The translations under genes and the position numbers were made by a program. DNA of 64,000 nt. Origin: an uncultured Pseudomonadales bacterium (GTDB taxonomy: Bacteria; Patescibacteriota; Microgenomatia; UBA1400; MFAQ01). The DNA lies in NCBI GenBank assembly GCA_964357975.1, contig CAYHNG010000002.1, forward strand, positions 4,560-68,559, read 5' to 3'. Under the pieces are notes generated by a model. It was not told the origin of the DNA, ran no database searches, and was given only the letters and a program-made list of their open reading frames with translations. Shown here in pieces: positions 9,227 through 60,523 of this stretch (positions within the stretch are counted from its first letter, which is position 1; each line of letters starts with the position of its first letter).

Positions 9227-9237
9227 TGGGTTTTGAT

Positions 9238-9276
9238 GGAGTGAGATTCCTCCACTACGGTCGGAATGACGAGTGG
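9238..9276. repeat. Family-A hairpin repeat, copy A1 (intergenic, 3' of groEL)
   Basis: GGAGTGAGATTCCTCCACTACGGTCGGAATGACGAGTGG, with internal GTGGAG/CTCCAC stem. Confidence 0.7.
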
Positions 9277-10926
<1,650 letters not shown>

Positions 10927-15400: not shown

Positions 15401-15561
15401 ATCTCCAAACAAATAGTTTCATGGGTGCCCAACAGACGGTCCATAAAACCGGCCTTGAGTGAAGTTCTCAGAGAGGAAAGAAATTCGATGAAGGCTGCCT
15501 GCCCGGTAAGGGAGTCTTTCGCTGGACGAACCTGCAAAACAGAGTATTTGGGCAAGGCCAT
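12082..15561 (-). CDS. Soluble VirD4/TraD-family (T4CP-like, HerA/FtsK-related) P-loop ATPase with Pro-rich linker and C-terminal degenerate Nudix-like domain
   Basis: Walker A ILGKSGTGKSTLI, VDPHGD, Walker B YVDEFQNF, ARKYKLGLVLANQ C-terminal block. Long P/S/T linker, then WTLPQGGVDNKKTIKETFFQEMGEEV (Nudix-like box with R to Q). No N-terminal TM helices. Confidence 0.55.
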   Translation of the reverse strand: MALPKYSVLQVRPAKDSLTGQAAFIEFLSSLRTSLKAGFMDRLLGTHETICLEIVNLNQTTFFIIACPERLEHLVRAQIAAQYPTALITPMKDYLPDWLNYGQPAIGQLALTGPSNLSLNSTLDDKVDQMASILGSLARVPAGQAAIIQICLFAAPKNWQKSVRSSLETVTPATATDPAKSKPSPYKSIIEKKLLFQAFSCDIRLAAITPDQATSKQLLSQLAASFGTYSLSEGNSLALKKHKFSGSLTKLRQMMLDRSAKYSNQYQYLNYGEIAAMYHLPGVLLAPIKGIAWGKTLKGEAPTNLPVDEGIPDSEKHLYNFFAKTEYKNHLAVFGMKKGIDRLRHTYILGKSGTGKSTLIGRMAINDIQHGEGVAFVDPHGDAAEVLLEYIPESRINDVAYLDPSVPGISFWMNPLYVKNPTQGEMVASSIVSIFSKLYGNSWGPRLEYILRNTLLTLVYKPETTLADVPRILTNKDFREKECLIHVTDPILVNFWRDEYDKYSEKFQTEAIAPILNKVGQFVTSPTIRDIINHPKSTVDFEDMMNAGKIIILNLPQGKIGEDNAALLGAMFISQIQIAAMNRAHIKEEERREFFLYVDEFQNFATSSFVKILSEARKYKLGLVLANQYIAQLPEEIQNAIFGNVGTVMSYVVGASDADRIMKELNNLYTADDLVGLGKYQLAMKMSVDSQMTQPFSSYGLPLPDTRTHQKEKVLEATYEKYYRKIEPMDMSQVTAIMTPAPKRYTEPPYIPKALRTPDNSPAPTAPTPPKAPYTPQLPPTPALSKPNPFKIPPSSSTVSTPDVIPSISKPPSTPAIQTTGQTISTKSTPVIAHQSASGGRSETTKQSPTDSSFRAESRNLPPSVVSPTPLKEPTLGDLDALRNQGLRPSVVGCFLHDKKILLTYQKSFNQWTLPQGGVDNKKTIKETFFQEMGEEVTEDFVKKCSQDIKLISVDKIEFPPSKQGLRDLVTDSGDPVVMKGKYYYFYTSEANTTDITIGATEFDDVKWLNYDEAYKLIKETNSGGRLRMITSLLRLLMEKGLLSTNQSTKHGSEPEPKPERSRTNDPSGRFPDGESRNFQDGSFGSGPVNRIGSQLHSTSVMGRGPISSAGGHSSSRTPSNSVPGSSTLGSDNTAKPDILVDNASGNKSSGNSTPPSTY

Positions 15562-17036: not shown

Positions 17037-17879
17037 CTAAGAAGTTTTTAGGTGGTGGCTGATTGCTCCGGCGAAGTCGGTGGTGTGCAGAAAAGCAGCG
17101 TGAAGATGAACAGTTTCACCGGTTTTTTTAGGAGACATATACAGGAGCTGTATGAGGTAAAAAAGATAATTTAGAGGGGCGAGGACATAAAATATGAGCA
17201 TGGAGTGAGATTTCTCCACTCGTTTCACTCGGTCGAAATGACGAGGACCTTTTTGTAATATCAGGGAAGTGTAGGCGTTGGCTAGATACTTTTTGGTCCA
17301 CCGATTTTCATAAAGAAAAGTCCGATAAGTGTCCCCCCTGTCCAAAAGAGGTACCACCTGGAGTACTTCGTGAGCCGTATATAAATTTCGTTTGTCTATG
17401 GGAACCGAAAGAGACAAGGAATCGAGCCAGAGATTGGGGCAGAAGGCATCAACCGCCGTCGAGTGGTCCTCCCCCGGATGACGCCGACGAAAAAATAGGG
17501 ACATGAGAATGATTACAACCGGGCGGACAAGCCAAAGACAATATGGAGAGGTCACAAAAAGGAGATCTATATCATCATGGGGGTGAGAGTTGCCGGCGGC
17601 CACCGATCCGGTAAGGGCAACCAGCCGAAGGCCGGGAAGAAATCTAAGAGTTTTGACCAGTTTCCGGGCATGTAAGGTTTTCAATTTTGAGGAGTGCGAA
17701 ACGGCCGAACGAAGCCTTTTCTGTGATGAAGTCATGGACGGAGGAAGTAGGCCTTTGATGGACCTAAATGGGACCGACATGGTGGTAACTAGCCAATAAT
17801 GAATCTCCTCAGGCGACAAGGGAAAATGAAAATAATCGGCGTATCTGATGGTTTTCGAAACGGCTCGACGAAGATCCAT
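17037..17879 (-). CDS. Nucleotidyltransferase-domain protein (pol-beta-like) carrying an in-frame family-A repeat
   Basis: LTGSVAAGNSHPHDDIDLLFV motif. The segment PRHFDRVKRVEKSHS is encoded by repeat copy A2. Confidence 0.4.
   Translation of the reverse strand: MDLRRAVSKTIRYADYFHFPLSPEEIHYWLVTTMSVPFRSIKGLLPPSMTSSQKRLRSAVSHSSKLKTLHARKLVKTLRFLPGLRLVALTGSVAAGNSHPHDDIDLLFVTSPYCLWLVRPVVIILMSLFFRRRHPGEDHSTAVDAFCPNLWLDSLSLSVPIDKRNLYTAHEVLQVVPLLDRGDTYRTFLYENRWTKKYLANAYTSLILQKGPRHFDRVKRVEKSHSMLIFYVLAPLNYLFYLIQLLYMSPKKTGETVHLHAAFLHTTDFAGAISHHLKTS
17201..17244. repeat. Family-A repeat, copy A2 (in frame inside the 17037-17879 CDS)
   Basis: GGAGTGAGATTTCTCCACTCGTTTCACTCGGTCGAAATGACGAG. Confidence 0.7.
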
Positions 17880-21186: not shown

Positions 21187-21220
21187 CAGATCTCGGATGT
21201 CAGATATCAGTTCTCAGATT
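21187..21220. repeat. Family-B CAGATNT heptamer tract, copy B1 (intergenic, upstream of tsaD)
   Basis: CAGATCTCGGATGTCAGATATCAGTTCTCAGATT. Confidence 0.6.
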
Positions 21221-21231
21221 AGAATATAAGG

Positions 21232-22296
21232 ATGAAGATATTAGCGATTGAGAGCACGTGTGATGAAACGGCGGCGGCTGTAGTGGAGAACTTTGGCGAG
21301 GGAGTCAAGGTGATAAAAAGTGTGGTGGCAAGCTCGGTGGAGATGCACGAAAAATATGGTGGAATTGTCCCTGAAGTAGCCGCAAGGGAACAAATTAAAA
21401 GTATGATTCCGGTAATTATGGAAGCAATCGGCGATGATAAGGTCGAGGCGGTAGCCGTAAGTTATGGACCGGGCCTAATGGGAAGTTTGCTCGTGGGAGT
21501 GGAAACCGCCAAGGTTCTGGCGTGGGCATGGAAAAAACCATTACTTAAAGTAAATCACATGGCGGCCCACGTGCTGGCAAATTGGATCACTAAGGAAGGA
21601 TCTCAGATGTCAGATGTCAGATCTCAGATTCCGGAGATGCCGGCCGTTGGTTTGGTAGTTAGTGGAGGGCACACTGATCTGATACTAATGGAGAGTTTGA
21701 GTAAGTGGACTTGGATTGGAGGGACACGTGACGATGCGGTAGGAGAGGCTTTTGATAAAGTAGCGAGAATCTTAGGACTTCCCTATCCCGGTGGACCGGA
21801 AGTGGACAAAGCGGCAAGTAAGGTAACAGAGAAAGAATGGGAAACAAACAAAAATGAATTTAAATTACCTAGACCCTTGATCCATGATCCTGGATTAGAA
21901 ATGAGTTTCTCGGGAATTAAAGCGGCAGTGGCGAGAGTGGTAGAAACAAGATCTCAGATGTCAGATCTCAGATTTCAGATGTCGGATGAGACTTTTAGGA
22001 ATCTGGTGGCGAGAGAATTTAGTGAAGCGGTAACAGAGGTTCTGGTGAAGAAAACCATGATGGCAGTTGAACAATTTTTACCAAGAAGTGTTGTTCTGGC
22101 TGGTGGAGTGGCGGCAAACAAAAAACTCAGAGAAAGGTTGAGAGCTGAAGTAGAGAAGACAGAAGAAACAAAGTTTTTTGTACCTGAACTTAAATATTGC
22201 GGAGACAACGCCGCAATGGTTGGTGCAGTAGCTATACTACGCCGTGAAGAAGCGGAGTTAGACCTAAAACCGGAGCCAAGTCTGGCGACGGTCTAA
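21232..22296 (+). CDS. tsaD: tRNA N6-adenosine threonylcarbamoyltransferase TsaD, with two in-frame heptamer-repeat insertions
   Basis: MKILAIESTCDETAAAVV N-terminus and VSGGHT. Inserted peptides SQMSDVRSQIPE and RSQMSDLRFQMSDE are encoded by copies B2 and B3. Confidence 0.85.
   Translation: MKILAIESTCDETAAAVVENFGEGVKVIKSVVASSVEMHEKYGGIVPEVAAREQIKSMIPVIMEAIGDDKVEAVAVSYGPGLMGSLLVGVETAKVLAWAWKKPLLKVNHMAAHVLANWITKEGSQMSDVRSQIPEMPAVGLVVSGGHTDLILMESLSKWTWIGGTRDDAVGEAFDKVARILGLPYPGGPEVDKAASKVTEKEWETNKNEFKLPRPLIHDPGLEMSFSGIKAAVARVVETRSQMSDLRFQMSDETFRNLVAREFSEAVTEVLVKKTMMAVEQFLPRSVVLAGGVAANKKLRERLRAEVEKTEETKFFVPELKYCGDNAAMVGAVAILRREEAELDLKPEPSLATV
21601..21634. repeat. Family-B heptamer tract, copy B2 (inside tsaD, in frame)
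   Basis: TCTCAGATGTCAGATGTCAGATCTCAGATTCCGG. Confidence 0.6.
21949..21988. repeat. Family-B heptamer tract, copy B3 (inside tsaD, in frame)
   Basis: AGATCTCAGATGTCAGATCTCAGATTTCAGATGTCGGATG. Confidence 0.6.
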
Positions 22297-23673: not shown

Positions 23674-25830
23674 ATGAGGGTGATGGAAAAGAATTACGAT
23701 CACAAAGAATACGAAGAGAAGATATATCGCGAGTGGGAGGCTAGTGGAGCCTTTACTCCCCCTACTGGAGCTGGGGTAGCAAAAACCGGACAGAAGACTT
23801 TAACGATCATTATGCCACCTCCAAACGCCAATGATCCGTTACATGTGGGACATGCGATGTTTGTGACGATCGAGGATATTCTGGTTAGATTCCACAGAAT
23901 GCGAGGTGAAGCGACTCTGTGGCTTCCGGGTACTGATCATGCCGGAATCGAAACGCAGTTTGTCTTTGAAAAGAAATTAGCTAAACAGAAAAAGAGTCGA
24001 TTTGATTTTGATAGGGACACTCTATATCAAATGATCTGGGATTATGTACAAGAAAACTCCGGAGTAGCGATCGAACAAATGAAAAAATTGGGAGCAAGTG
24101 CCGATTGGAGCAGATATAAGTTCACCCTCGACCAGGAGGTGGTCACAGAGGTTATCAAAACCTTTGTAAAGCTACACGAAGACGGATTGGTCTACAGAGG
24201 TGTCAAACTAGTCAATTACTGCACCCGATGTGGGACCGCCTATTCGGAACTGGAAGTGGATCATGAGGATCGAGAGGACAAGCTCTACAAAATAAATTAC
24301 GGAAAAATTATGGTGGCGACTACCAGACCGGAAACCATGCTCGGAGATGTGGCAGTGGCCGTTAATCCGGATGACCCCAGATACAAGAAGCTGATTGGCG
24401 AGAAGGTTGCCTTGCCACTCGTAGGGAGAGAAATACCCATTGTCGGGGACTCAATGGTGGACATGGAGTTTGGAACCGGTGCCGTAAAGATTACTCCGAC
24501 TCACGATCAAAATGATTGGGAGGTAGCGGTAAGGCAAGGGTGGAATATGGAAGAGATTGTCAGAGACTATCAGGTAATCGGAAATAACGGCAAGATGACC
24601 CAGAATGCCGGGAAATATGAGGGGTTGAACACAGTAGAGGCGAGAGAGAAGGTAGTGACTGATTTGGGAGAAGCTTTAATAGAAACGAAACCTTATCTTC
24701 ACAGCGTGGGTACTTGTTATCGATGCCATCGAATAATTGAGCCTTTGCCGATGAAACAATTCTTTATCAAGGTTAAAACTCTTGCAGATAAAGCTCTGAA
24801 AGCTCTCGATCAAGGAGAGACGGAGATTATGGGATCCGGTCATGACAAAATCTTACGTCACTGGCTAAGCAACTTACGAGATTGGAATATCAGCCGGCAG
24901 ATTGTTTGGGGAATAAGAATACCGGTGTGGTATCCACCAAAAGAACTCAAGGAATCAAGAACTCAAGGAATCAAGACAGAAAATGAGGAGTATGTGGTGA
25001 GTGAGAAGAGCCCGGGTGAAGGGTGGATTCAGGAAACAGATACGTTTGATACCTGGTTTTCTTCCGGCCAATGGCCAGTGGTGACACTAAAAACCGGTAA
25101 ACCGGGAGACTTTGAGGCATATTATCCAACGAGCGTAATGGAAACAGCCTATGACATTCTCCCCTTTTGGGTGATGAGGATGATGATGCTCGGCATATAT
25201 ATGACAGGAAAATCTCCCTTTAGAACGGTGTATTTACACGGATTGGTGCGAGATGAAAAGGGAGAAAAGATGAGCAAAAGTAAAGGCAACGTGATCAATC
25301 CTTTGGACTTGACCGAAAAATATGGAGCGGATTCTCTGAGGATGGCCCTGGTCATGAGCACGACGCCAGGACAAGATAGCAACACGGGAGAGAACAAAGT
25401 ACGGGGTATGAGAAATTTCGGGAATAAGATTTGGAATGCGGGAAGATATGTGTTGGAACTTGGATCAATAATGTCAGATGGAGTGAGATTGCCACGTCAC
25501 TCCGTTCCTCGCAATGACGGCGTTGGAGGAGAGAAAGATGATGACTTTGAAAAGAAGATGGAGGTAATAAAAAAGGAATTAACCAGATTGTTGGAGGATA
25601 ACCGTGTCGGACTGGCGGCGGAGTATATTTACAATGAATTTTGGCACTGGTTTTGTGATGAGCAGATTGAAGAAAATAAACAAGGAAGGATTAGTGACGA
25701 GGTCCTCAAAGCTGGATTTGAATCATTTTTGAAAATGCTTCACCCGTTCGTCCCCTTTGTGACGGAAGCGGTGTGGAAAGAGGCGTTTCCGGAGGAAGGA
25801 TTGATTATTAGTCAGAAGTGGCCGATTTAA
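23674..25830 (+). CDS. valS: Valine--tRNA ligase (short form lacking C-terminal coiled coil), with an in-frame family-A repeat
   Basis: PPPNANDPLHVGHA (HIGH) and KMSKSKGN. The peptide GVRLPRHSVPRNDG is encoded by repeat copy A3. Confidence 0.9.
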   Translation: MRVMEKNYDHKEYEEKIYREWEASGAFTPPTGAGVAKTGQKTLTIIMPPPNANDPLHVGHAMFVTIEDILVRFHRMRGEATLWLPGTDHAGIETQFVFEKKLAKQKKSRFDFDRDTLYQMIWDYVQENSGVAIEQMKKLGASADWSRYKFTLDQEVVTEVIKTFVKLHEDGLVYRGVKLVNYCTRCGTAYSELEVDHEDREDKLYKINYGKIMVATTRPETMLGDVAVAVNPDDPRYKKLIGEKVALPLVGREIPIVGDSMVDMEFGTGAVKITPTHDQNDWEVAVRQGWNMEEIVRDYQVIGNNGKMTQNAGKYEGLNTVEAREKVVTDLGEALIETKPYLHSVGTCYRCHRIIEPLPMKQFFIKVKTLADKALKALDQGETEIMGSGHDKILRHWLSNLRDWNISRQIVWGIRIPVWYPPKELKESRTQGIKTENEEYVVSEKSPGEGWIQETDTFDTWFSSGQWPVVTLKTGKPGDFEAYYPTSVMETAYDILPFWVMRMMMLGIYMTGKSPFRTVYLHGLVRDEKGEKMSKSKGNVINPLDLTEKYGADSLRMALVMSTTPGQDSNTGENKVRGMRNFGNKIWNAGRYVLELGSIMSDGVRLPRHSVPRNDGVGGEKDDDFEKKMEVIKKELTRLLEDNRVGLAAEYIYNEFWHWFCDEQIEENKQGRISDEVLKAGFESFLKMLHPFVPFVTEAVWKEAFPEEGLIISQKWPI
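25490..25520. repeat. Family-A repeat, copy A3 (in frame inside valS)
   Basis: GGAGTGAGATTGCCACGTCACTCCGTTCCTCGCAATGACGG, with a 7 bp GGAGTGA/TCACTCC stem. Confidence 0.7.
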
Positions 25831-29718: not shown

Positions 29719-30156
29719 TTATTTATTGAGAGCGTCGTTAACCAACTGGTCGGCTTCTTTGTTTTTGTCTCTAAGCACATTAACAAAGGACATTAGTTTT
29801 ATTTGATCATTGTCTCTGAGTTTTTTGATCAGACTAACAATGGACTTTCGTAACTCTTGGAGATGTAGTTGTTTAACTTTATAGAGACCGGTGATTTGTT
29901 TGACAATCAGTTCGGAGTCAAGAATAAAGCGAATTTTTTCGGTAGAGATGTCCCGGATTTCAATTTCTTCTAAAGCTCTGAGGACGGCGGTATATTCGGC
30001 CACGTTGTTGGTCGTCTCACCAATTTTTTCCGAGAGAGTAAAGACAACATGACCATCGGCTTTGGCGACGACACCAATGGCGGCCTGGCCCGGATTACCC
30101 CGGGAACCTCCATCGGTATTTATTTCCAGTAAATCTAGGGTTTTCGACATAGGCAT
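29719..30156 (-). CDS. RNase HI-like protein
   Basis: NTDGGSRGNPGQAA...NNVAEYTAVLRALE. Confidence 0.7.
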   Translation of the reverse strand: MPMSKTLDLLEINTDGGSRGNPGQAAIGVVAKADGHVVFTLSEKIGETTNNVAEYTAVLRALEEIEIRDISTEKIRFILDSELIVKQITGLYKVKQLHLQELRKSIVSLIKKLRDNDQIKLMSFVNVLRDKNKEADQLVNDALNK

Positions 30157-34255: not shown

Positions 34256-34288
34256 GTCATCTCGAGCGTAGTCGAGAGATCTTACTCC
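34256..34288. repeat. Family-A repeat, copy A4a (inverted orientation)
   Basis: GTCATCTCGAGCGTAGTCGAGAGATCTTACTCC, the reverse complement of the family consensus. It forms a head-to-head pair with A4b. Confidence 0.6.
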
Positions 34289-34306
34289 ATTTTGATGCGA
34301 ATACTT

Positions 34307-34336
34307 TGAGATTTCTCCACTTCGGTCGAAATGACG
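34307..34336. repeat. Family-A repeat, copy A4b
   Basis: GAGATTTCTCCACTTCGGTCGAAATGACGGG. Confidence 0.6.
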
Positions 34337-34995: not shown

Positions 34996-35448
34996 TTATT
35001 TGAGTTTGGGGAGGAGGGAGGAGAGATCGGCAAGAAGGTCGGGGTGAGGGGTGTCGAGGACGGAGCGCTTGGGGATGACCAGGTAATCGGCGGGGAGGAA
35101 TTGGGGGAGTAGTTCGGCTAAGAGGGCGGAGGTGACACGTTTGATGCGGTTGCGGTCGACGGCGAGACGGGCGGTTTTTTTGGACAATAGAATGGAAAAT
35201 CTAGGGACGAGGGGATTTGTCGTATGGAGACCTGCAAGGACTCTCCTTGCAGGAATGACGGAGGTTTGGGTGGAGTGAGATCTACCCCTTCGGGTACCAT
35301 CGGCCCCGACTGCGCTCGGGATGACAGAAGAGAGGGGGGTGGGGGCAGTGACGATGGTGAAGTGGCGGGTGTGGAAGGATCGGCCTTCACGGGTGAGACG
35401 ATCACGCTCTTTGCGTAGGGGAAGCCGGTTTGTGGCCGGAAGTGGCAT
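34996..35448 (-). CDS. rnpA: RNase P protein component, carrying about 33 aa of in-frame repeat-derived insertion
   Basis: LSKKTARLAVDRNRIKRV core. The extra segment SSVIPSAVGADGTRRGRSHSTQTSVIPARRVLAG is encoded by the composite family-A element A5. Confidence 0.75.
   Translation of the reverse strand: MPLPATNRLPLRKERDRLTREGRSFHTRHFTIVTAPTPLSSVIPSAVGADGTRRGRSHSTQTSVIPARRVLAGLHTTNPLVPRFSILLSKKTARLAVDRNRIKRVTSALLAELLPQFLPADYLVIPKRSVLDTPHPDLLADLSSLLPKLK
35231..35327. repeat. Family-A composite (long) element A5, inside rnpA
   Basis: CCTGCAAGGActcTCCTTGCAGG hairpin plus AATGACGG, then GGAGTGAGATCTACCCCTTCGGGTACCATCGGCCCCGACTGCGCTCGGGATGACAG. Confidence 0.65.
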
Positions 35449-35610: not shown

Positions 35611-35648
35611 GTGGAGTGAGATTCCTCGACTACGCTCGGAATGACATG
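35611..35648. repeat. Family-A repeat, copy A6 (intergenic between rpmH and dnaA)
   Basis: GTGGAGTGAGATTCCTCGACTACGCTCGGAATGACATG. Confidence 0.7.
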
Positions 35649-42609: not shown

Positions 42610-44514
42610 TTAGGGATTAGATGGCTCGGCGATTTCTTGGGGTTGGTCCTGAGAAGCGGCTTCGGCGGCGGCACGAAGTTTGTCTTGCTTTTGCCGTTCA
42701 AGAATCTCAGCCGGCTTACTGGTAGCCAGAGCGTGTTCATCAGCAGAGGAAATAATTTTGATGGCCACGTGATTCATGCCAGCAAAGAAGATACCTTCTC
42801 CAACGCCGGCCGAAAGAAGTAATTGTTTCTCCCCTTGAGAGAGATAGAAGACTTCGGAGATTTGATTGATAGCGGCGGATGACTGTTTGAGTAGTAATTT
42901 GAGAGCCGAGTTGGTGATGATGGCTTTGCCGTAGGCTGAACCCAGAAAGTCGTCAACGTTTTGTGAAATGATGGAAACACCGAAGTAATACTTACGTGCG
43001 CGTTTGACAAAGCCTTGAAGGATTTTGGCTGAATCTTCATAGCGCATCAAGTACCAAGCTTCATCAACGACGAGCATTCTTTTGCGAAGATTTTTGCGAA
43101 CTTCGTTCCAAACAAAGTCCAAAATCATAAACATAATGATGGGCCGAATCTCATCGGCGGTATCCCGGAGGGTAAAAACAGTAATGGGAGCATTGATATC
43201 AATATTGCTCTGCTGATCGAAGATACCTTTGACGGCACCCATGACGAAACGTTCAAGCCTGGCGGCTAGTGTTTTACTAACAGCTTCTTCCATACCGATC
43301 AGGGAACGATAAAGATCTTCCATGCGTGGTGGTTCGAGAGTGTGAGTGGATGGGTCTTCGGTAATGCCTTTTTGGCGATAAGTGAGAACAAGAGCGCGGT
43401 TCATGGTAGCTTCTTCAATGGGATCCATTTGACCAATCATGATTTTGAGAAGAGACATGAGGAAAAGGTATTTGTAGCCCATTTCGTCTTCGGTACTCTC
43501 TTTGGGTCGAGCAATTTGGAAGGGATTAATTTTGTGGGAGGCGCTGGCCGAAAAAGAGAGGTAGTTACCACCGACCGATTTGGTGACCATTTCGTACTCG
43601 TTTTCAGGGTCGAGAATAATTACCTGGCAATCGAACATAAGAGATCGAAGAATCTCGAGCTTAACAGCAAAAGATTTTCCGGCACCGGAAGTGGCTAAAA
43701 TGAGCATGTTAGCATTTTCGAGGGAGAAACGGTCGAAAATAACGAGAGAGTCGTTATGGGCGTTGATCCCGTAAAGAATTCCTTGATTATCGGAGAGTTC
43801 GGAGGAAGTAAAAGGGAAAGTCGTGGACAGAGCAGTGGTGTCCATATTTCTTGTGAGCATAAGTTTATCCTTGCAATAGGGAAGAGTGCTTTTGAATGCA
43901 TCTTCCATTGAGAGGGATGCAATCTTGCTGATGATTAAAAGTGACGCCAACATAGATTGAATTTGGGCGGTAGAGGTATCCAATTCTTTTTCGGATTCGG
44001 CGGAGATGCTGACATAGAGTGAGAATTGAAAAAACTTCTCGGCGCCTTTGACAAGCTGAGATTGGAGAACTTTGGCGTCTTCGAGACCGGCTTCGGTAGC
44101 GGCACGAGGAATGCGACCTCGTTCGATATCGGTGTTTATTTCAGCTTCCATCTCGGCAATACGGCGGCGTAAACTATCGAGAGTATCTTTGGAGTCTGAG
44201 GGGTAGATAAACATGGAAATGTCCAAAGAGTGGTTGAAGTTGATTAAAGGAGAGAGCCAGTTGGCGGAAACGTAGCGAGGATAACCGGTGACAAAAAGAG
44301 TACGGATATAAACATCGTCAATTTTGATGTGAGAAAAATCGACTTCAACGGCAGAAGGGGCGATAATATCTTGGATAGATTGACTAGAAGCGGCGGATTT
44401 TTGATCTACAGTTGAGGGAGTAGCTTGCGTGACATTAGAAACCGGCGGGGTGACGGGTGTAGAGGTAGCCGGTACGCTTTGTTTTTTGCCAAGAGAAAAA
44501 AGGTTCAAAGCCAT
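42610..44514 (-). CDS. VirB4/PrgJ/TrbE-family T4SS ATPase
   Basis: Walker A ILATSGAGKSFA, ILDPENEY and Walker B MLVVDEAWYLM (the DEAW hallmark), with a VirB4-like N-terminal domain. Confidence 0.75.
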   Translation of the reverse strand: MALNLFSLGKKQSVPATSTPVTPPVSNVTQATPSTVDQKSAASSQSIQDIIAPSAVEVDFSHIKIDDVYIRTLFVTGYPRYVSANWLSPLINFNHSLDISMFIYPSDSKDTLDSLRRRIAEMEAEINTDIERGRIPRAATEAGLEDAKVLQSQLVKGAEKFFQFSLYVSISAESEKELDTSTAQIQSMLASLLIISKIASLSMEDAFKSTLPYCKDKLMLTRNMDTTALSTTFPFTSSELSDNQGILYGINAHNDSLVIFDRFSLENANMLILATSGAGKSFAVKLEILRSLMFDCQVIILDPENEYEMVTKSVGGNYLSFSASASHKINPFQIARPKESTEDEMGYKYLFLMSLLKIMIGQMDPIEEATMNRALVLTYRQKGITEDPSTHTLEPPRMEDLYRSLIGMEEAVSKTLAARLERFVMGAVKGIFDQQSNIDINAPITVFTLRDTADEIRPIIMFMILDFVWNEVRKNLRKRMLVVDEAWYLMRYEDSAKILQGFVKRARKYYFGVSIISQNVDDFLGSAYGKAIITNSALKLLLKQSSAAINQISEVFYLSQGEKQLLLSAGVGEGIFFAGMNHVAIKIISSADEHALATSKPAEILERQKQDKLRAAAEAASQDQPQEIAEPSNP

Positions 44515-45196: not shown

Positions 45197-46201
45197 TTAG
45201 ATGGCTTGAATTTTAAGAGGTCGAATAATGGCTCCGGAAAGGTCGAGAGAGTATGGGGAAAAAGTAAAATCTTCTTTTTCGGCCAGGATTTGATAAAGGC
45301 CATTTTCCAAAGGGCGGGCAAACATAAACTGGCCGAGTTTGTTACTTTTGGTAGCTCGGGAGGTGAGTCCGTTGTGTTGAATTTCCACCAGGACTCCGTC
45401 GAGAATTTTTCCTTCCGGGGTCAGAGTCAGGCCGACAAGAGTGTTGGGGGTCGTAGGGGTGAAAGGAATGGGGAGCTGGGCTACTTGGGAAGTTGTTGGT
45501 TCAGGGTTGCTGGTTATTTCAACCACAGGCTGATCTGCCTTTGGCTGAGGTGCGGGTGTGATGGAGGGGGATTTCTCCACTACGGTCGAAATGACGGGAG
45601 TGACTGACGCGGTGGGGGTGGGTGTAACGGATTCCGGTAGAGGAGCATTTGGGGTGATGATGACAGGAGTGATTTGGACAACGGGGGGTGACGTAATAGG
45701 GGTTGTGGAGTGAGATTCCTCCACTCGGGTACCAGCGGCCTCCGCTCCCGCCTGCAAAAGCTGTGCTTTAGTGTCTGCGGGCAAGTCGGTCGGAATGACA
45801 GATGGGGAAGTATCGGTGACACCAGTAGAGAGCTCGATACGAGCGTTAGAGACGGCTTGAGTACCAATATTGGGTCCGGTAGGTAAGGCCATATCCTCAT
45901 CTACTACTTTGGAATGTCTCCAAATATATTGAGTAGGTGAATAAATTGAGCGGATAAAAGCAAGAATCCAGACATCCAAAGAGCGTCCTTGAACCGGGAC
46001 AAAAGCCATACCTACTCCAAGAACAATAAAAAGAAAGGAGAGTGGATACTTAAAGAAGAAAGGCAATGGCAAACTGTAAATTACGATAGCCAGAACAATA
46101 GAGATGCCAAGTGAGGCGAACTGTTTGATGGTCATGTCACCGATCAGGCGGAAGCGGTAGGAACTGATGTCTTGTGGTAGTGGATGTTGTTGGATGGCCA
46201 T
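45197..46201 (-). CDS. PrgI/VirB3-like two-TM protein with long Pro/Thr-rich extracellular tail; contains two in-frame family-A repeats
   Basis: N-terminal FRLIGDMTIKQFASLGISIVLAIVIY...LSFLFIVLGVGMAF (PrgI-like two-TM module). The tail includes the repeat-encoded segments TPVISTVVEKS and SVIPTDLPADTKAQLLQAGAEAAGTRVEESHS. Confidence 0.45.
   Translation of the reverse strand: MAIQQHPLPQDISSYRFRLIGDMTIKQFASLGISIVLAIVIYSLPLPFFFKYPLSFLFIVLGVGMAFVPVQGRSLDVWILAFIRSIYSPTQYIWRHSKVVDEDMALPTGPNIGTQAVSNARIELSTGVTDTSPSVIPTDLPADTKAQLLQAGAEAAGTRVEESHSTTPITSPPVVQITPVIITPNAPLPESVTPTPTASVTPVISTVVEKSPSITPAPQPKADQPVVEITSNPEPTTSQVAQLPIPFTPTTPNTLVGLTLTPEGKILDGVLVEIQHNGLTSRATKSNKLGQFMFARPLENGLYQILAEKEDFTFSPYSLDLSGAIIRPLKIQAI
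45562..45600. repeat. Family-A repeat, copy A7 (in frame inside the PrgI-like gene)
   Basis: GGAGGGGGATTTCTCCACTACGGTCGAAATGACGGGAG. Confidence 0.65.
45705..45800. repeat. Family-A long variant, copy A8 (in frame inside the PrgI-like gene)
   Basis: GTGGAGTGAGATTCCTCCACTCGGGTACCAGCGGCCTCCGCTCCCGCCTGCAAAAGCTGTGCTTTAGTGTCTGCGGGCAAGTCGGTCGGAATGACAG. Confidence 0.7.
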
Positions 46202-50892: not shown

Positions 50893-52731
50893 TTAGTTGC
50901 CGGAAACTGTCTTCTGGGCTTCTGGGATATTAATATTAGTTCCACCGATTACTGGTCTGGTTGAGGCGGAAGGTCCACCATATGCCCCACCAAGACTGTT
51001 TCTTAGACTACGAGGCAAGCCGGAGTATCCTGTTTTTGCCCATGATTCGTTAACATTAACTCCTGTTTTGAGGGCTTCGCCAATGGCGGCGCCGTAGGGG
51101 AATGGAGGTGTCTTGAGGGCTTTTTCGACCATTTCGCAGTACTTGCTGGACATCATTAGTAATCCAAAACCAATGGTAGCAAGCATAAGGCTACCAACTG
51201 AACCGGTCCACGTGCCGGTTGATACGTTTCCGGGAATGGTTAATGGAGGCGTCCAGATATTACTAAGGGTGGATAGCTGATTTACTCCAAGAAGATTTTC
51301 CAGCCCGGAGGTTATCCATCCAGTAAGTGGGCCTCCTGCGGCGGCTAAAGATAGTAGTGGCTGGCACATAAGTGCATATGAAAGAGTGAGAAAGAACATA
51401 GCCACCGGAAAGACGGCGAGGTTGCCGTAGATGCTTCGTAGCCAATCTCCAAAAGAAGTGGAGCCGGGAAACAAGTTACCAAGAAGTAGAATGGGGGCAA
51501 AAATAAGATTAATAATAACTCCAAAATAGGCCTGGAAAAGCTTCATGATTAGTTTGAAATAGGAAATGGCGACGGCAATCATAATAATTATCCCTATGAC
51601 GATCCCAAACCAATTAATCAAATAAACACCAACAAGGGCGGTGATTATTCCGAGAAAACCTCCGATGATTAAGTTGAATAAAACGAAAGGAGACACCATT
51701 ATAGCAACAAGCATGTTTACAAACCACGATCCAAAAGCTCCAAGCACGCCCTGACCACTGACCGTATTGATCATATCCTCTCCGACTCCTGATCCGAAAC
51801 CGCCCGAGTTGAGGATAGCTTCGTTACCTCCAATCCTCAGAATGTTGATGGCCATTGCGCCAGCGATTGTAGAGATATCTACCAAAAAGCCAACGATAGC
51901 ATAGGAGAAAGTAATCATGAGGAGGGTGGCGATGAGCTTGGGAATAGCGAGCTGAATGGTGGCGGCGGTTTTGGAGTCTATCTTGATTCGAAACATAATC
52001 ATTATCCCATAAAGAACGAAACCGATAGCAAAAAGCATGTAAGCAATGTTTCTAAAGGCACGCCAGAGAGGAAGAATCGGGGCGAGAGCGGAGAAACCAT
52101 AACCGGGTCCGGCCGCATAGGTATCGCTGATAATGTGGTGTTTTTGAAGATTAGAGGAAATATAAGTTAAGTAATCATATGTACCGGCAGGCCTAGAAGA
52201 TATAAGGCCGGTGGCGAATTTTCCCAACTTGCCGATTAGACCTCCCGGTGCTGTGGGGCTGTAAGCAAGGTCGCTGATTTTTGTATTAATGGTGACGGGT
52301 TTACTTTTTAGTTGCTCGAACATTTTTAATGAGTTCTTTATGGAATCTAGGAAATTATCATGTGGATTGGTAAACATCAAAGTACTCCACCATTCCATGC
52401 CTTGAAGGATGACAATATCAACAAAACCAACTCCATCACCACTCAGCGAATCGACACCGGGAGCACATTTGCCGGAGTACCAAGTTTCCAGATTCATAAG
52501 GTCTCCGGAACGTTTATCGCAGAATTCTTTGACGTAATCCTGTATGCCTTTTGATCCAGGTATACCAAAAAGATTCGGAGTCGCAGCCGCCGCGTTTGTG
52601 TAGGGAACTATGATAGCGGAAATAGTTATGAATACGGATAGAAATATGAGGCTGAGAGATTTTTGAAGAAGGGACATAGCTAGAAAAATTATACAGGAAA
52701 ATGACACACCTGGGTGGAGTGAGATTGCCAC
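50893..52731 (-). CDS. VirB6/TrbL-like polytopic membrane protein with N-terminal extracytoplasmic domain
   Basis: Signal peptide, roughly 200-aa soluble domain, then at least 7 TM helices rich in Gly/Ile. The location fits a T4SS channel subunit. Confidence 0.45.
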   Translation of the reverse strand: MAISLHPGVSFSCIIFLAMSLLQKSLSLIFLSVFITISAIIVPYTNAAAATPNLFGIPGSKGIQDYVKEFCDKRSGDLMNLETWYSGKCAPGVDSLSGDGVGFVDIVILQGMEWWSTLMFTNPHDNFLDSIKNSLKMFEQLKSKPVTINTKISDLAYSPTAPGGLIGKLGKFATGLISSRPAGTYDYLTYISSNLQKHHIISDTYAAGPGYGFSALAPILPLWRAFRNIAYMLFAIGFVLYGIMIMFRIKIDSKTAATIQLAIPKLIATLLMITFSYAIVGFLVDISTIAGAMAINILRIGGNEAILNSGGFGSGVGEDMINTVSGQGVLGAFGSWFVNMLVAIMVSPFVLFNLIIGGFLGIITALVGVYLINWFGIVIGIIIMIAVAISYFKLIMKLFQAYFGVIINLIFAPILLLGNLFPGSTSFGDWLRSIYGNLAVFPVAMFFLTLSYALMCQPLLSLAAAGGPLTGWITSGLENLLGVNQLSTLSNIWTPPLTIPGNVSTGTWTGSVGSLMLATIGFGLLMMSSKYCEMVEKALKTPPFPYGAAIGEALKTGVNVNESWAKTGYSGLPRSLRNSLGGAYGGPSASTRPVIGGTNINIPEAQKTVSGN

Positions 52732-52797
52732 GTCGACTTGCTCCCCCGCCTGCAGCGCTTGATGCGCAGCATCTGCGGGCAGGTCGCAATGACGAGG
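52724..52797. repeat. Family-A long variant, copy A9 (intergenic)
   Basis: GTGGAGTGAGATTGCCACGTCGACTTGCTCCCCCGCCTGCAGCGCTTGATGCGCAGCATCTGCGGGCAGGTCGCAATGACGAGG. Confidence 0.7.
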
Positions 52798-56903: not shown

Positions 56904-56997
56904 GGTTCGAAGTGCGCAAAATATCGTACTCGACCTCCGTCCCTCGAGTACGAGTGCGGATCCGCTCCGTGCGAAATTTTGCTTGCCCTTCTGCACC
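56904..56997. repeat. Family-C direct repeat, copy C1 (about 95 bp, nested palindromes)
   Basis: GGTTCGAAGTGCGCAAAATATCGTACTCGACCTCCGTCCCTCGAGTACGAGTGCGGATCCGCTCCGTGCGAAATTTTGCTTGCCCTTCTGCACC, about 93% identical to C2. Contains GTACTCGA...TCGAGTAC and GCAAAAT...ATTTTGC stems. Confidence 0.75.
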
Positions 56998-57027: not shown

Positions 57028-57086
57028 GGTGGAGTTTTTGTATGAGATTGCTTCAGCTCGAATACGAGATTCGCAATGACGAAGTG
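57028..57086. repeat. Family-A-like repeat, copy A10, with adjacent weak terminator hairpin (3' of pilin gene 2)
   Basis: CCGCCTGACGGTGGAGTTTTTG then GAGATTGCTTCAGCTCGAATACGAGATTCGCAATGACGAAGTG. Confidence 0.5.
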
Positions 57087-57087
57087 C

Positions 57088-57429
57088 TTAGTAAGGTTTG
57101 GGGATGTTGATATTTCCCTCGAAGACGTCGACACCGAAGAAGTAGGCGATGAGTTTCATGAGAGCCCAAGAGGCAGCGACGATAGCGAGACCAACGACGG
57201 CGGCGGTGATACGATTTCTGGCTTGTTCTGTTTTACCTTTATCTCCACCGGAGGTAAGCCATTCAATACCTCCCATGACTAGAAAGGCAAAGGTAAGAAT
57301 ACCGGCTACGATGAAGGCGAGAGAAATGACTCTACTAATAAGAACACCAATGTCGGTGATCTTCATTCCGGTTGGTTGGGGAACTCCAATGGTTCCGGCG
57401 GCGGCATAAGCTTGAGAAATTAGGGACAT
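57088..57429 (-). CDS. VirB2/TrbC-like pilin paralog 2
   Basis: Leader MSLISQAYAAA|G, TM1, loop LTSGGDKGKTEQ, TM2. Confidence 0.55.
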   Translation of the reverse strand: MSLISQAYAAAGTIGVPQPTGMKITDIGVLISRVISLAFIVAGILTFAFLVMGGIEWLTSGGDKGKTEQARNRITAAVVGLAIVAASWALMKLIAYFFGVDVFEGNINIPKPY

Positions 57430-57496
57430 ATTTTTTGGTTTTTTAATAATTATTTATTCTATTACTAATTTAGTATTATACCCGTTATTGAGTTTG

Positions 57497-57856
57497 TCAA
57501 TTGCCGAGAGGATTTTCGGTACACAGAGCATCCAAATTAATTCCGAAAAACTCAAGCACAATCATATAGACCGCATAACTGGAGGCAACGATGGTGAGGC
57601 CAATAAGGGCGGCCGATATCATCTTTTGGGAGGATTCGATCTTACTTTTGTCTCCACCGGAAGTGAGCCACTGGACTCCACCCATGACGAGGTAGACGAA
57701 GAAGGCGACTCCAGAAATAATGAAGGCAGCACTGACTAGATTACTGACGAGATGGCCGATACAGGTATAACCAAAGAAATTATTTTTAGTGGCCATTTCT
57801 CCGATGGGAAGAGTAATATCAGCAGCCAATACCTTAGGAATTATTTTTGGGATCAT
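57497..57856 (-). CDS. VirB2/TrbC-like pilin paralog 3
   Basis: Leader MIPKIIPKVLAA|D, loop LTSGGDKSKIE, 2 Cys. Confidence 0.55.
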   Translation of the reverse strand: MIPKIIPKVLAADITLPIGEMATKNNFFGYTCIGHLVSNLVSAAFIISGVAFFVYLVMGGVQWLTSGGDKSKIESSQKMISAALIGLTIVASSYAVYMIVLEFFGINLDALCTENPLGN

Positions 57857-58203
57857 AAGGCGCTTGGAAATACCGGTTTAAGAATATTAATTTTGAAGAC
57901 TTGTTGGATAAAGTAGGTGACCGCATAAGAGCCGACCAGTATTCCAATGCCGATGACAGAGCTGGTGATTTTTTTTTGAGCATCATCAATTTTGGCCTTG
58001 TCACCTCCGGAGGTAAGATATTCTATACCTCCCCAGACAAGATAAATAATGAAGGCGACTCCTCCAACGGTGATGACTGTCTGCCAAAGAGTGGCAATAT
58101 AAAAGGCAAGACCGCCTCCTGGGTCCTGAGGTATTTTGGGCGACAGTGCCTTATTGACAATTTCGTTGGCGGCAAAAGCAGTAGGTATTATTTGAAAGGC
58201 CAT
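57853..58203 (-). CDS. VirB2/TrbC-like pilin paralog 4
   Basis: Leader MAFQIIPTAFAA|N, loop LTSGGDKAKID. ATGA overlap with paralog 3. Confidence 0.55.
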   Translation of the reverse strand: MAFQIIPTAFAANEIVNKALSPKIPQDPGGGLAFYIATLWQTVITVGGVAFIIYLVWGGIEYLTSGGDKAKIDDAQKKITSSVIGIGILVGSYAVTYFIQQVFKINILKPVFPSAL

Positions 58204-58208
58204 TTTGT

Positions 58209-58577
58209 TTAGAGTTTTAGTGCATCAAATGGATTAAGAATGTCGAGACCGAGAACGGCTCCGACGATGCCAATAATAAAGAAGGAGGCGACGATAGCGA
58301 TAAGGCCAATAGCCGCTTGGGTCATTGAGGTTTGAGCTTCCGAGACCTTTGCCTTGTCTCCACCAGCTGTAATCCATTTTAGACCACCCATGGTGAAATA
58401 GATGACAAAGGCCAAACTGCCGACAACGGTAATGGTGGTGATTAAATTAGAAAGAAATGTTCCCAAACCACTTTGGACACCTCCACTGATGCCTGTTTGA
58501 AAAGGGCCAATTCCTCCAACTTCACTGCCTAGTGGGATATCGGCGGCGGCAAGGGCTGAGGAAATAAATGTCATCAT
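58209..58577 (-). CDS. VirB2/TrbC-like pilin paralog 5
   Basis: Leader MMTFISSALAAA|D, loop ITAGGDKAKVSE. Confidence 0.55.
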   Translation of the reverse strand: MMTFISSALAAADIPLGSEVGGIGPFQTGISGGVQSGLGTFLSNLITTITVVGSLAFVIYFTMGGLKWITAGGDKAKVSEAQTSMTQAAIGLIAIVASFFIIGIVGAVLGLDILNPFDALKL

Positions 58578-58580
58578 AAT

Positions 58581-58946
58581 TTAGATAGATTTTAATTTAG
58601 GAGCCAAGATTGCTCCAAAGTCTCCAAAGAGGACCTTGCTGACGATGGCAATAATTAGGAAACTAGCGGCAATAATGACTAGCCCCACAAGACTCATGGT
58701 GATTTTATTTTGAGCTTCAGTTAGTTTACCTTTGTCTCCACCGGAGGCAATATAGGCAAGTCCACCAGTGAGGAGTTGCCAGAGAGCGAAGACTCCGGCA
58801 ATAACTACAATGAAGCGAACTAGGGCAGAGATGATATCTGTGGTCTGAGTGGTTTCCTTTGGGATGCCTGCGGGAAGGTCGATGGTACCTATTACATTCG
58901 CGGCTAGGGCTGACTTGGCGAATAATGTGTTTAGTATATTGATCAT
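58581..58946 (-). CDS. VirB2/TrbC-like pilin paralog 6
   Basis: Leader MINILNTLFAKSALAA|N, loop IASGGDKGKLTE. Confidence 0.55.
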   Translation of the reverse strand: MINILNTLFAKSALAANVIGTIDLPAGIPKETTQTTDIISALVRFIVVIAGVFALWQLLTGGLAYIASGGDKGKLTEAQNKITMSLVGLVIIAASFLIIAIVSKVLFGDFGAILAPKLKSI

Positions 58947-58949
58947 AAA

Positions 58950-59273
58950 TTAAAAGAATTTAAAGCCAATAATTGCCCCCATAACTCGGGTGATTAGGAA
59001 AGCGAGAACAATGAGGATCAGACCAAGTATTCCATAGTTTAGCATGTTCTGAGCTTGTTCGGTTTTGCCTTTGTCACCACTTGCAGTGATATAGTTGAAA
59101 CCAGCCAGGATAATGACGATAAAGGCCATGACGCCGGAAATTATTAGCACATTGGAGATTAGAGGGTTAATAAGGTTGGCCAATGTGGCCCCACTACCGC
59201 CGACATTCAAGGCTTTGCCTGGAGCATAGAGATTTTCCAACGATTCTGCCGCAAGGACAGTTTTGATAACCAT
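58950..59273 (-). CDS. VirB2/TrbC-like pilin paralog 7
   Basis: Leader MVIKTVLAA|E, loop ITASGDKGKTEQ. Confidence 0.55.
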   Translation of the reverse strand: MVIKTVLAAESLENLYAPGKALNVGGSGATLANLINPLISNVLIISGVMAFIVIILAGFNYITASGDKGKTEQAQNMLNYGILGLILIVLAFLITRVMGAIIGFKFF

Positions 59274-60428: not shown

Positions 60429-60523
60429 GGTTCGAAGTGCGCAAAATGTTGTGCTCGACCTCCGTCCCTCGAGTACGAGTGCGGATCCGCTCCGCGCGAC
60501 ATTTTGCTTGCCCTTCTGTACCG
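60429..60523. repeat. Family-C direct repeat, copy C2
   Basis: GGTTCGAAGTGCGCAAAATGTTGTGCTCGACCTCCGTCCCTCGAGTACGAGTGCGGATCCGCTCCGCGCGACATTTTGCTTGCCCTTCTGTACC. Confidence 0.75.

Follow-up and report, generated by a model that had tools for sequence, protein, structure and literature searches.

The PrgI-like gene and its repeat-bearing linker

The 64,000-nucleotide stretch of DNA analysed here in full length, hereafter called the window (positions 4,560 to 68,559 of contig CAYHNG010000002.1, assembly GCA_964357975.1), comes from an uncultured bacterium of the Microgenomates, a group of the Candidate Phyla Radiation (CPR), and contains on its minus strand (45197-46201) a gene for a 334-aa PrgI/VirB3-like protein of a type IV secretion system (T4SS), in whose Pro/Thr-rich linker two copies, A7 and A8, of a dispersed palindromic repeat are read in frame. 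The gene was identified from the list of open reading frames (ORFs) and from a match of the Pfam domain PrgI (PF12666) to aa 8-91 (E = 1e-8), and its membership in the PrgI/VirB3 family is borne out by a score above the Pfam gathering cut-off (36.1 bits against 27), a two-helix hairpin and a virB4 neighbour. It opens a T4SS gene cluster and is followed directly downstream by genes for a TraC-like protein of 216 aa and a VirB4-like protein of 634 aa, the neighbours being recognised by their P-loop_TraG and CagE_TrbE_VirB domains in Pfam, and this gene order is conserved in the related contigs L001 and L124-L126. The protein has 508 homologues, mostly from Microgenomates and with Collierbacteria and Woesebacteria names among them; the window protein itself (P0001) forms a singleton cluster, and its nearest relatives are 299-aa proteins from Collierbacteria. 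As a separate observation on the same cluster, the VirB4-like ATPase of close relatives (1128-1212 aa; L001:11611-14997 and L124:7733-11371) carries an intein with a LAGLIDADG endonuclease according to Pfam, and the 634-aa orthologue in the window (42610-44514) has no intein.

An AlphaFold2 model of the PrgI-like protein, built with 48 homologues, predicts two adjacent hydrophobic helices (aa 24-43 and 48-67; 46001-46132, minus strand; predicted local distance difference test, pLDDT, about 92-94) that would form a VirB3-like membrane hairpin, followed by a third confident helix at aa 75-87. The Pro/Thr-rich linker at aa 89-242 (45476-45937, minus strand), which contains both repeats, is predicted to be disordered, with pLDDT values mostly below 55 and without secondary structure. 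At the C-terminal end, aa 255-333 (45203-45439, minus strand) are modelled as a seven-stranded beta-sandwich (pLDDT 80-92) of the transthyretin-like or carboxypeptidase-regulatory-like type, for which the best Foldseek matches were the transthyretin-like domains of carboxypeptidases D/N, with CnaB and pilin domains ranking below. Compared with its relative P0002, the protein is 90% identical in its N-terminal part and 98% identical in its C-terminal domain, and the linker is 50% identical with 35 gap columns; among 93 homologues the linker ranges in length from 84 to 176 aa.

A7 is a short-form copy of 36 nt (45561-45596, minus strand; reverse complement CGTCATTTCGACCGTAGTGGAGAAATCCCCCTCCAT) that is read as (P)VISTVVEKSPS(I) at aa 202-213 (PVISTVVEKSPS), while A8 is a long-form copy of 96 nt (45705-45800, minus strand; reverse complement TGTCATTCCGACCGACTTGCCC...CCCGAGTGGAGGAATCTCACTCCAC) that is read as (S)VIPTDLPADTKAQLLQAGAEAAGTRVEESHS(T) at aa 134-166, its translation being SVIPTDLPADTKAQLLQAGAEAAGTRVEESHST, also given as SVIPTDLPADTKAQLLQAGAEAAGTRVEESHS. 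Both lengths are multiples of three, and the two copies, which are single, non-tandem and 108 nt apart, share one reading phase of the ORF (GTC ATT ...). The initial annotation, which had placed two in-frame repeat copies in this part of the protein and quoted their peptides, was correct on both counts, the peptides being the straight in-frame translations of the reverse complements of A7 and A8. In A7 the stem ATTTC/GAAAT and the inner C-G pair are intact and the tail has diverged (AAATCCCCCTCC against the consensus RRATCTCACTCC, two mismatches); the ends of A8 show 0 and 1 mismatches to the family probes. A7 is farther from the family consensus than A8, both in a 19-nt core (3 against 0 mismatches) and in the tail (2 against 0). 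A repeat search placed 45554-45596 and 45698-45740 in a direct family of eight copies (D1) with one additional inverted copy. Moreover, the 19-nt core GGAGTGAGATTCCTCCACT has six matches in the window at up to three mismatches, with 0.03 expected and none of 100 shuffled sequences reaching six, and the opposite end of the element, ACGGTCGGAATGAC, likewise has six matches, compared with 0.29 expected.

Short repeats can be suspected of having caused a chimeric join during assembly or binning, in which case the ORF would be unreal. The organism is uncultivated and the exact protein is a singleton, but usual reads exceed the repeats (36-96 nt) in length, both copies are traversed by an uninterrupted ORF that runs on into a C-terminal domain with 98% identity to that of orthologues, the flanks of each copy are collinear with L001, and the same kind of insert is found in independent assemblies of relatives. 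An artefact of this kind is therefore very improbable.

Structure and distribution of the hairpin element

Read on the GTCAT strand, the family has the consensus YGTC-ATYYC-GA-S-loop-S'-GA-GRRAT-CTC(ACTCCAY). Its stem comprises eight positions (AT-YYC-GA-S against S'-GA-GRR-AT), of which AT/AT is invariant, YYC/GRR and S/S' covary, and positions 6-7, between the outer stem and the S/S' pair, are a tandem G.A/A.G that is not Watson-Crick. In the window copies the outer five pairs are ATTCC/GGAAT, ATTTC/GAAAT, ATCTC/GAGAT or ATTGC/GCAAT, the inner pair is C-G or G-C, and the tag is CGTCAT in five and TGTCAT in four. The smallest loop has 6 nt (CGNAGT), the core reading as DNA d(ATTCCGAGCGAAGTCGAGGAAT); among the matches listed from other phyla, loops of 10-30 nt occur commonly, and the loop of A8 extends to 67 nt. 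CTC follows the stem in every match, and in this lineage the tail is CTCACTCCA(Y), ending in CCA. Including the flanking Y bases the short form measures 36 nt and thus causes no frame shift.

To follow the element across phyla, one genome per species was scanned with the pattern GTCATYYCGASCG-N(1-31)-GTSGAGRRATCTC, which accepted every Y/R and S/S combination, and 148 matches from at least 120 stretches were analysed. Despite this free pattern, YY/RR was complementary in 143 and S/S' in 144 of the 148 matches listed. The near-full complementarity indicates that the hairpin is a real, constrained structure. Among the same listed matches, GTCAT is preceded by T in 107 cases and by C in 30, and the flanks were unrelated. 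The 28-nt core GTCAT-YYC-GA-S-CGNAGT-S'-GA-GRR-ATCTC is nearly unchanged in at least 15 phyla (loci L004-L123; for example L022:3093-3120, L046:1510-1537 and L064:1154-1181), including Bacteroidota, Bacillota, Verrucomicrobiota, Planctomycetota, Chloroflexota, Pseudomonadota, Actinomycetota, Acidobacteriota, Gemmatimonadota, Cloacimonadota, Peribacteria and others, and in many phyla the same 28-mer is intergenic. None of the 148 listed copies of other phyla has the ACTCCA extension of the tail, but contigs of related Microgenomates do have it. Only this extension is specific to the lineage; the core is shared well beyond this genome.

Rfam contained no family covering the element, either over the whole window at the gathering score or around A7 and A8 at E values up to 10, and six loci from other phyla gave no Rfam match at E values up to 1. 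Literature queries with the sequence words of the element returned primers only. In a metagenome-assembled genome of the Clostridia (L064), two near-threshold matches to the Gut-1 RNA (1303-1371 and 2282-2350; 45.7 and 45.6 bits against a gathering score of 50) follow two copies of the 28-nt hairpin on the downstream side, at a distance of about 120-140 nt, which suggests a repeated composite unit of hairpin and Gut-1-like RNA in that genome.

Copies across the window

A census of the window was made by tail motif and by a tag-plus-stem scan. The generic GTC-AT-stem scan was noisy, with 27 matches compared with about 17 in shuffled sequences, and a match was retained only if it had the family tail or formed an obvious hairpin. 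The resulting 14 elements comprise five intergenic copies and nine that lie in frame within five genes, encoding a T4SS coupling protein (T4CP), a nucleotidyltransferase, a class I aminoacyl-tRNA synthetase, RnpA and the PrgI-like protein. The intragenic copies use three sense phases and one antisense phase, and all ORFs stay open; 12 of the 14 copies are sense to local transcription.

The rnpA gene (34996-35448, minus strand) contains two in-frame elements within 35212-35335 (minus strand): a long one at 35270-35335 (VIPSAVGADGTRRGRSHS) and a second one with a perfect inner hairpin at 35212-35257 (VIPARRVLAGLHTTNP). In the encoded protein of 150 aa, the Pfam Ribonuclease_P match (aa 3-149) spans 147 residues over 108 profile positions, and the alignment to Escherichia coli RnpA is offset by about 38 residues; both elements thus represent an insertion, of about 40 aa relative to the profile and to the E. 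coli protein and located between the first strands of the fold, in an otherwise normal essential protein. Two adjacent elements are likewise in frame in the gene for a 1159-aa T4CP-NUDIX protein (12972-13071, minus strand), one at 13010-13071 (VIAHQSASGGRSETTKQS, VIAHQS...TKQS) and one at 12972-13007 (SSFRAESRNLPPS). This T4CP homologue (12082-15561, minus strand) has a C-terminal NUDIX fusion at aa 889-1019, and both repeats lie just before it, at aa about 831-864. A copy whose loop is 8 nt longer occurs in the gene for a 280-aa nucleotidyltransferase (17200-17243, minus strand; RHFDRVKRVEKSHSM), and an antisense copy with the stem ATTGC/GCAAT in the gene for a 718-aa class I aminoacyl-tRNA synthetase (23674-25830, plus strand; copy at 25478-25518, minus strand; DGVRLPRHSVPRND). 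The latter falls between the catalytic and the anticodon-binding domain, with full Pfam domain matches on both sides, as is also found for the insert in rnpA.

Outside these genes, a short-form copy, A1, found by the repeat search and core probes, is located just downstream of groEL (9277-10902, minus strand) at 9236-9271 (minus strand), and another short form lies between rpmH and dnaA, upstream of rpmH, at 35611-35646 (minus strand). An intergenic head-to-head dimer with the tags outside (34256-34290, plus strand, and 34301-34335, minus strand), detected as an inverted pair in the repeat search, directly follows a terminator-like hairpin downstream of a gene encoding 172 aa. In addition, a long-loop copy with the stem ATTGC/GCAAT and the inner hairpin CCCGCAG...CTGCAGGCGGG is found at the 5' end of a gene encoding 612 aa (52714-52793, minus strand), and a related CGTC-type element (GTCATTGCGAATCTCGTATTCGAGCTGAAGCAATCTCA) adjoins the T4SS pilin array at 57037-57080 (minus strand).

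The distribution of these copies bears on the idea that the conserved unit is a peptide module, VIPT...VEESHS, selected in several proteins with no DNA element behind it. Five copies, namely the two in the PrgI-like protein, the two in RnpA and the one at 13010-13071 in the T4CP, are indeed read in the V-I-P/S/A phase. Other copies, however, lie in non-coding DNA, use two other sense phases (SFRAESRNL, RHFDR...) or, like DGVRLPRHSVPRND, run antisense; conservation tracks base pairing rather than codons, and the 28-mer is intergenic in many phyla. Since the family occupies three sense phases, an antisense phase and intergenic sites, we regard a shared protein motif as excluded for practical purposes.

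Pfam scans of 47 window ORFs revealed no transposase domain, and no Y1_Tnp gene or gene for a REP-associated tyrosine transposase (RAYT; REP, repetitive extragenic palindromic) was found in the 64-kb window. A diversity-generating retroelement or another reverse transcriptase as the source was considered and rejected, the only RVT-like match in the window (29719-30156) being an RNase H.

Some further features of the window are recorded here in their own right. The GC skew is positive on the plus strand in every 2-kb bin (0.03-0.40) across 1-64000, with no change of sign at the expected origin between rpmH-rnpA and dnaA-dnaN (about 35.65 kb), and 13 of the 14 repeat copies share the same orientation on both sides of this expected origin; for a different Microgenomates genome, a disparity in strand composition is reported (PMC7143001). 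A second, unrelated repeat of TCAGATN heptamers (GATCTCAGATGTCAGATGTCAGATCTCAGAT) occurs upstream of tsaD (21189-21225) and at 21585-21635 and 21950-22000, being found twice in frame in tsaD (21232-22296, plus strand; GSQMSDVRSQIP and RSQMSDLRFQMSDE), and the Pfam TsaD match spans 306 residues over 263 profile positions. Moreover, a direct repeat of 94 nt with 94% identity and internal palindromes (CTCGACCTCCGTCCCTCGAG) is present at 56904-56997 and, 3.5 kb away, at 60429-60522; the pair brackets the T4SS pilin array and a polyprenyl synthetase gene. In the array (57204-59093), about five paralogous small T4SS-pilin-like genes lie in tandem and were detected as repeat families D2 and D3; two of the genes, at 58209-58577 and 58581-58946, contain a Pfam T4SS_pilin domain.

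Presence and absence among relatives

In the protein alignment the position of A8 is a gap in all 12 aligned relatives, and in a DNA alignment with the orthologue in L001 (85% mean column identity) an 81-nt gap falls at A8. The A8 peptide QLLQAG occurs only in P0001 among the orthologues compared, and A8 would most parsimoniously be a gain in the lineage of the window. At the A7 site, only the window and the clade of P0002 have an element, more distant relatives being empty there. At this site L001 (10511-10560) has GTCATTTCGACCGACCTATCTGCAGAC...CTCCACTCCA, a shortened long form that agrees with the long-form consensus over its first 30 nt, and the alignments suggest that the site was either filled before the lineages split and then remodelled, or hit twice. 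No target-site duplication is visible at A7 or at A8, the flanks of A8 having diverged relative to L001. Other GTCAT...ATC elements were found at the DNA level in the linkers of orthologues from other Microgenomates: L124 has two (one of which ends in EESHS), L125 has three and L126 has one. Further cases were seen at the peptide level in the linkers of P0029, P0022/28 and P0082, and none of these elements of orthologues falls in the N- or C-terminal domain. The expectation of the initial annotation that the tail would vary in length and sequence among relatives is thus supported by the absence of A8 from all 12 of them and by the restriction of QLLQAG to P0001; moreover, instead of identical tails and no trace of the repeat elsewhere, the repeat signature was found elsewhere.

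A scan of metagenomes with the left part of the long form yielded eight contigs. In six of these, and in four different flank contexts (L127/L133, L128/L130, L132 and L134), a 73-nt element, GTCATTCCGACCGACCTGCCCGCAGACGCTAAAGCGCAGCTTTTGCAGGCGGGAGTGGAGGAATCTCACTCCA, is present, several copies of which are followed by an inverted partner copy. Its inner stem shows a compensatory change from AAAGC/GCTTT to AGAGC/GCTCT in two contexts, L127/L133 and L134. A8 corresponds to this 73-nt long form with an extra module of 21 nt and otherwise point changes only; the module (45724-45744, minus strand; reverse complement CGGAGGCCGCTGGTACCCGAG; peptide AEAAGTR) was delimited by alignment with L127, L128, L132 and L134, and its core, GGCCGNTGGTACCCGA, is common to A8 and the rnpA copy at 35270-35335. 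Two further contig matches have a related inner hairpin, and one of them, L131, from a Hainich groundwater assembly, corresponds to the 52.7-kb locus of the window and points to the same organism in that groundwater. Judged by these alignments, the long variant is a propagating subfamily with a hairpin nested in its loop, and not a one-off.

It was proposed in the initial annotation that the repeats vary a surface-exposed component of the secretion system and that such variation could be adaptive; in its general form this explanation holds that the repeats were co-opted so that an exposed tail can change in length or antigenicity, their gain and loss being selected. The differences in tail length and sequence among relatives, the recurrence of REP-derived linker segments in about ten orthologue lineages and the use of one reading phase by all eight copies checked at the DNA level are in line with it. 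However, relaxed constraint alone predicts recurrence in a disordered linker that is 50% identical, and the same elements occur in rnpA and in the aminoacyl-tRNA synthetase, nucleotidyltransferase and T4CP genes, where antigenic variation would be senseless, as well as in intergenic DNA, and are present in both orientations. The A7/A8 site, moreover, is not tandem, invertible, switchable or slippage-prone. The extracellular location itself is called into question by the two adjacent transmembrane helices, which put both termini on the same side of the membrane, and by the homology to VirB3, the canonical form of which is a binding partner, and in some cases a fusion partner, of the cytoplasmic VirB4 (bioRxiv 10.1101/2025.01.22.634366), arguing for a cytoplasmic C-terminus; the transthyretin-like/CnaB-like fold of the C-terminal domain, which is commoner in extracytoplasmic proteins, points the other way. 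On balance, adaptive variation of an exposed tail appears unlikely.

Slightly less probable still is a function of the nucleic acid, in which the hairpins would be kept for a role in mRNA (stability or a translational pause between domains) or as binding sites for a host protein in DNA, the peptide being a by-product. The strong covariation of the stem across phyla means that the hairpin is constrained somewhere in its life cycle, 12 of the 14 window copies are sense to local transcription, intergenic copies sit at gene ends near terminator-like hairpins, and Di Nocera et al. (2013; PMC3733652) have argued for a role of many REPs as RNA elements. The covariation, on the other hand, may only reflect the needs of mobilisation, RNA folding energies are close to those of shuffled sequences, the tail of A7 and the copy in L001 are decaying, which is unexpected for a functional site, and A8 is absent from every aligned relative that has the PrgI-like gene.

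Probable insertion of a REP-type hairpin into a permissive linker

Taken together, the dispersal of a hairpin over unrelated genes, the preservation of ORFs at the sites where it is found and its lineage-specific presence and decay lead us to regard it as an element of the REP type, selfish or neutral, whose distribution has been sifted by purifying selection, rather than as a device specific to the T4SS. A7 and A8 belong to this YGTC-tagged family and, with a probability of roughly 80%, are insertions of a neutral or selfish kind that a permissive linker tolerates. According to this interpretation, a YGTC-tagged palindromic element that is dispersed through this Microgenomates genome would have entered the disordered Pro/Thr-rich linker that joins the VirB3-like membrane hairpin to the C-terminal beta-sandwich, and its copies would persist there by virtue of lengths that are multiples of three, a stop-free phase and the weak constraint on the linker. 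On these three grounds A7 and A8 would simply be translated, as 12 and 32 extra linker residues, in the manner of Rickettsia palindromic elements (RPEs), and their effect on the protein would most likely be no more than 44 added residues in a linker of about 150. Of the two, A8 would be the lineage-specific gain, derived from a recurrent 73-nt long-loop copy and the 21-nt module. Mobilisation presumably proceeds via a single-strand DNA hairpin that is handled in trans. The oligonucleotide d(GCGAAGC) forms a very stable DNA mini-hairpin, and the resemblance of the G.A-containing centre of the element to it suggests, by analogy, a single-strand DNA intermediate.

Several observations weigh against this interpretation. 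In RNA folding energy the short form does not stand out from shuffled sequences (z-scores from -2.5 to +0.8), and the predicted minimum-energy fold differs from the hairpin supported by covariation; because the folding energies are no better than those of shuffles, we rely on covariation for the structure. The window has a short form and L001 a shortened long form at the A7 site, which implies two hits or conversion between copies, and this history hints at a site preference. The flanks of A8 have diverged in the alignment with L001, which blurs its insertion point and empty site. All eight linker elements checked at the DNA level use the phase GTC ATT (V-I), a narrower choice than avoidance of stop codons by itself would lead one to expect, and some selection on the peptide or a target bias may be at work; judged by their peptides, P0022 (SFSPLSKGDGGI) and P0082 (...GRDD) seem to be read in other phases. 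Finally, the neutrality of the insertions is something we infer, and P0001 is a singleton cluster.

A broader proposition, which we put forward tentatively and consider possible rather than probable, is that CPR bacteria of the Microgenomates host an actively spreading YGTC hairpin element that has a modular long-loop subfamily and no linked transposase, that inserts again and again into coding DNA and that prefers one site or phase. If so, its preferred phase, GTC-ATT, would match the P-V-I codons of Pro/Thr/Val/Ile-rich linkers, the element would be a real source of linker expansion in surface and secretion proteins of the CPR, and the near-identical 28-nt core in at least 15 phyla would point to a universal enzyme, encoded by the host or by a mobile element, with specificity for a G.A-containing DNA hairpin.

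Irrespective of this proposition, in-frame repeats of the type well known in Rickettsia occur in this CPR bacterium at high density, the 64 kb holding nine intragenic copies. The phenomenon is thereby extended to a second kind of reduced genome, with rnpA, a tRNA synthetase gene and T4SS genes among the genes hit. It also entails a warning for annotation, in that peptides such as VIPT...EESHS, SFRAESRNL and ...PRND in CPR proteins have their origin in repeats and are not to be mistaken for motifs or antigenic determinants.

Comparison with known repeat families

The CGTC-tagged REP superfamily, as characterised by Di Nocera, De Gregorio & Rocco (2013, BMC Genomics 14:522, PMC3733652), has an unpaired tag at one end that is often TGTC and may also be CCTC, a stem of 8-9 positions starting with A-T, a loop of 4-5 nt with some deviant families, and a 3-nt tail that is mostly CCA; head-to-head dimers predominate, intragenic units are known, and no transposase is associated. 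The family in the window resembles this description in its unpaired YGTC tag, its eight-position stem starting with A-T and its short unpaired tail ending in CCA, as well as in the head-to-head dimer at 34256-34335 and the inverted pairs found in other genomes and beside long forms, in its in-frame intragenic units with VIP... peptides, and in the lack of a transposase domain among the 47 window ORFs. It differs in that two of the eight stem positions are tandem G.A/A.G and in that the loop has at least 6 and up to 67 nt rather than 4-5. By these criteria the window family fits the CGTC/TGTC superfamily; a search of the supplement for its sequence words gave no occurrences. In the same article, RPE-4 is equated with CGTC-4, and RPE-6 and the Neisseria repeat dRS3 with CGTC-1, and the superfamily is reported from five phyla, none of them CPR (PMC3733652). 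Compared with these five phyla, the occurrence of the 28-nt core in at least 15 sharpens the question, left by that study, of what mobilises or maintains CGTC-type REPs.

Several other systems share some of these features. Miniature inverted-repeat transposable elements may be mentioned for comparison, the window element being one hairpin with asymmetric ends, a tag on one side and a tail on the other. In contrast to contingency or antigenic-variation loci, the A7/A8 site has no tandem or switchable structure. Like REPs and their inverted doublets (REPINs) in the REP/REPIN-RAYT system, the window family is a short dispersed hairpin with inverted doublets, an orientation bias and, probably, a single-strand DNA hairpin as the substrate. 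REPs of that system carry a GTAG tag and are mobilised by an IS200/IS605-like Y1 transposase, whereas the window family carries a YGTC tag and no RAYT was found among the 47 window ORFs. With dRS3 of Neisseria it has the outer scaffold CGTC-ATTCC...GGAAT-C in common; dRS3 itself is a fully Watson-Crick ATTCCC-N8-GGGAAT hairpin, the copies of which form clusters in intergenic DNA and are used by prophages for integration.

The likeness to RPEs extends to the way in which the elements are distributed among genes. In-frame insertion of RPEs was reportedly described by Ogata et al. in 2000, and in both cases small palindromic repeats lie in frame in many unrelated and partly essential genes of a reduced genome, are present or absent in a lineage-specific manner and have hit several genes twice. 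The encoded peptides are alike as well, VIPAKAGI and VIPWLDHGI being listed for intragenic CGTC units of Rickettsia conorii in the supplement (PMC3733652). The two differ in phylum and in loop and stem core, and the putative kinship of their sequences is drawn from the CGTC classification of RPE-4 and RPE-6. A full-text literature search returned no paper linking REP or RPE elements with the CPR. The repeats in the PrgI-like gene are an instance of a known phenomenon, that of REP- and RPE-like intragenic elements, seen here in a new bacterial group.

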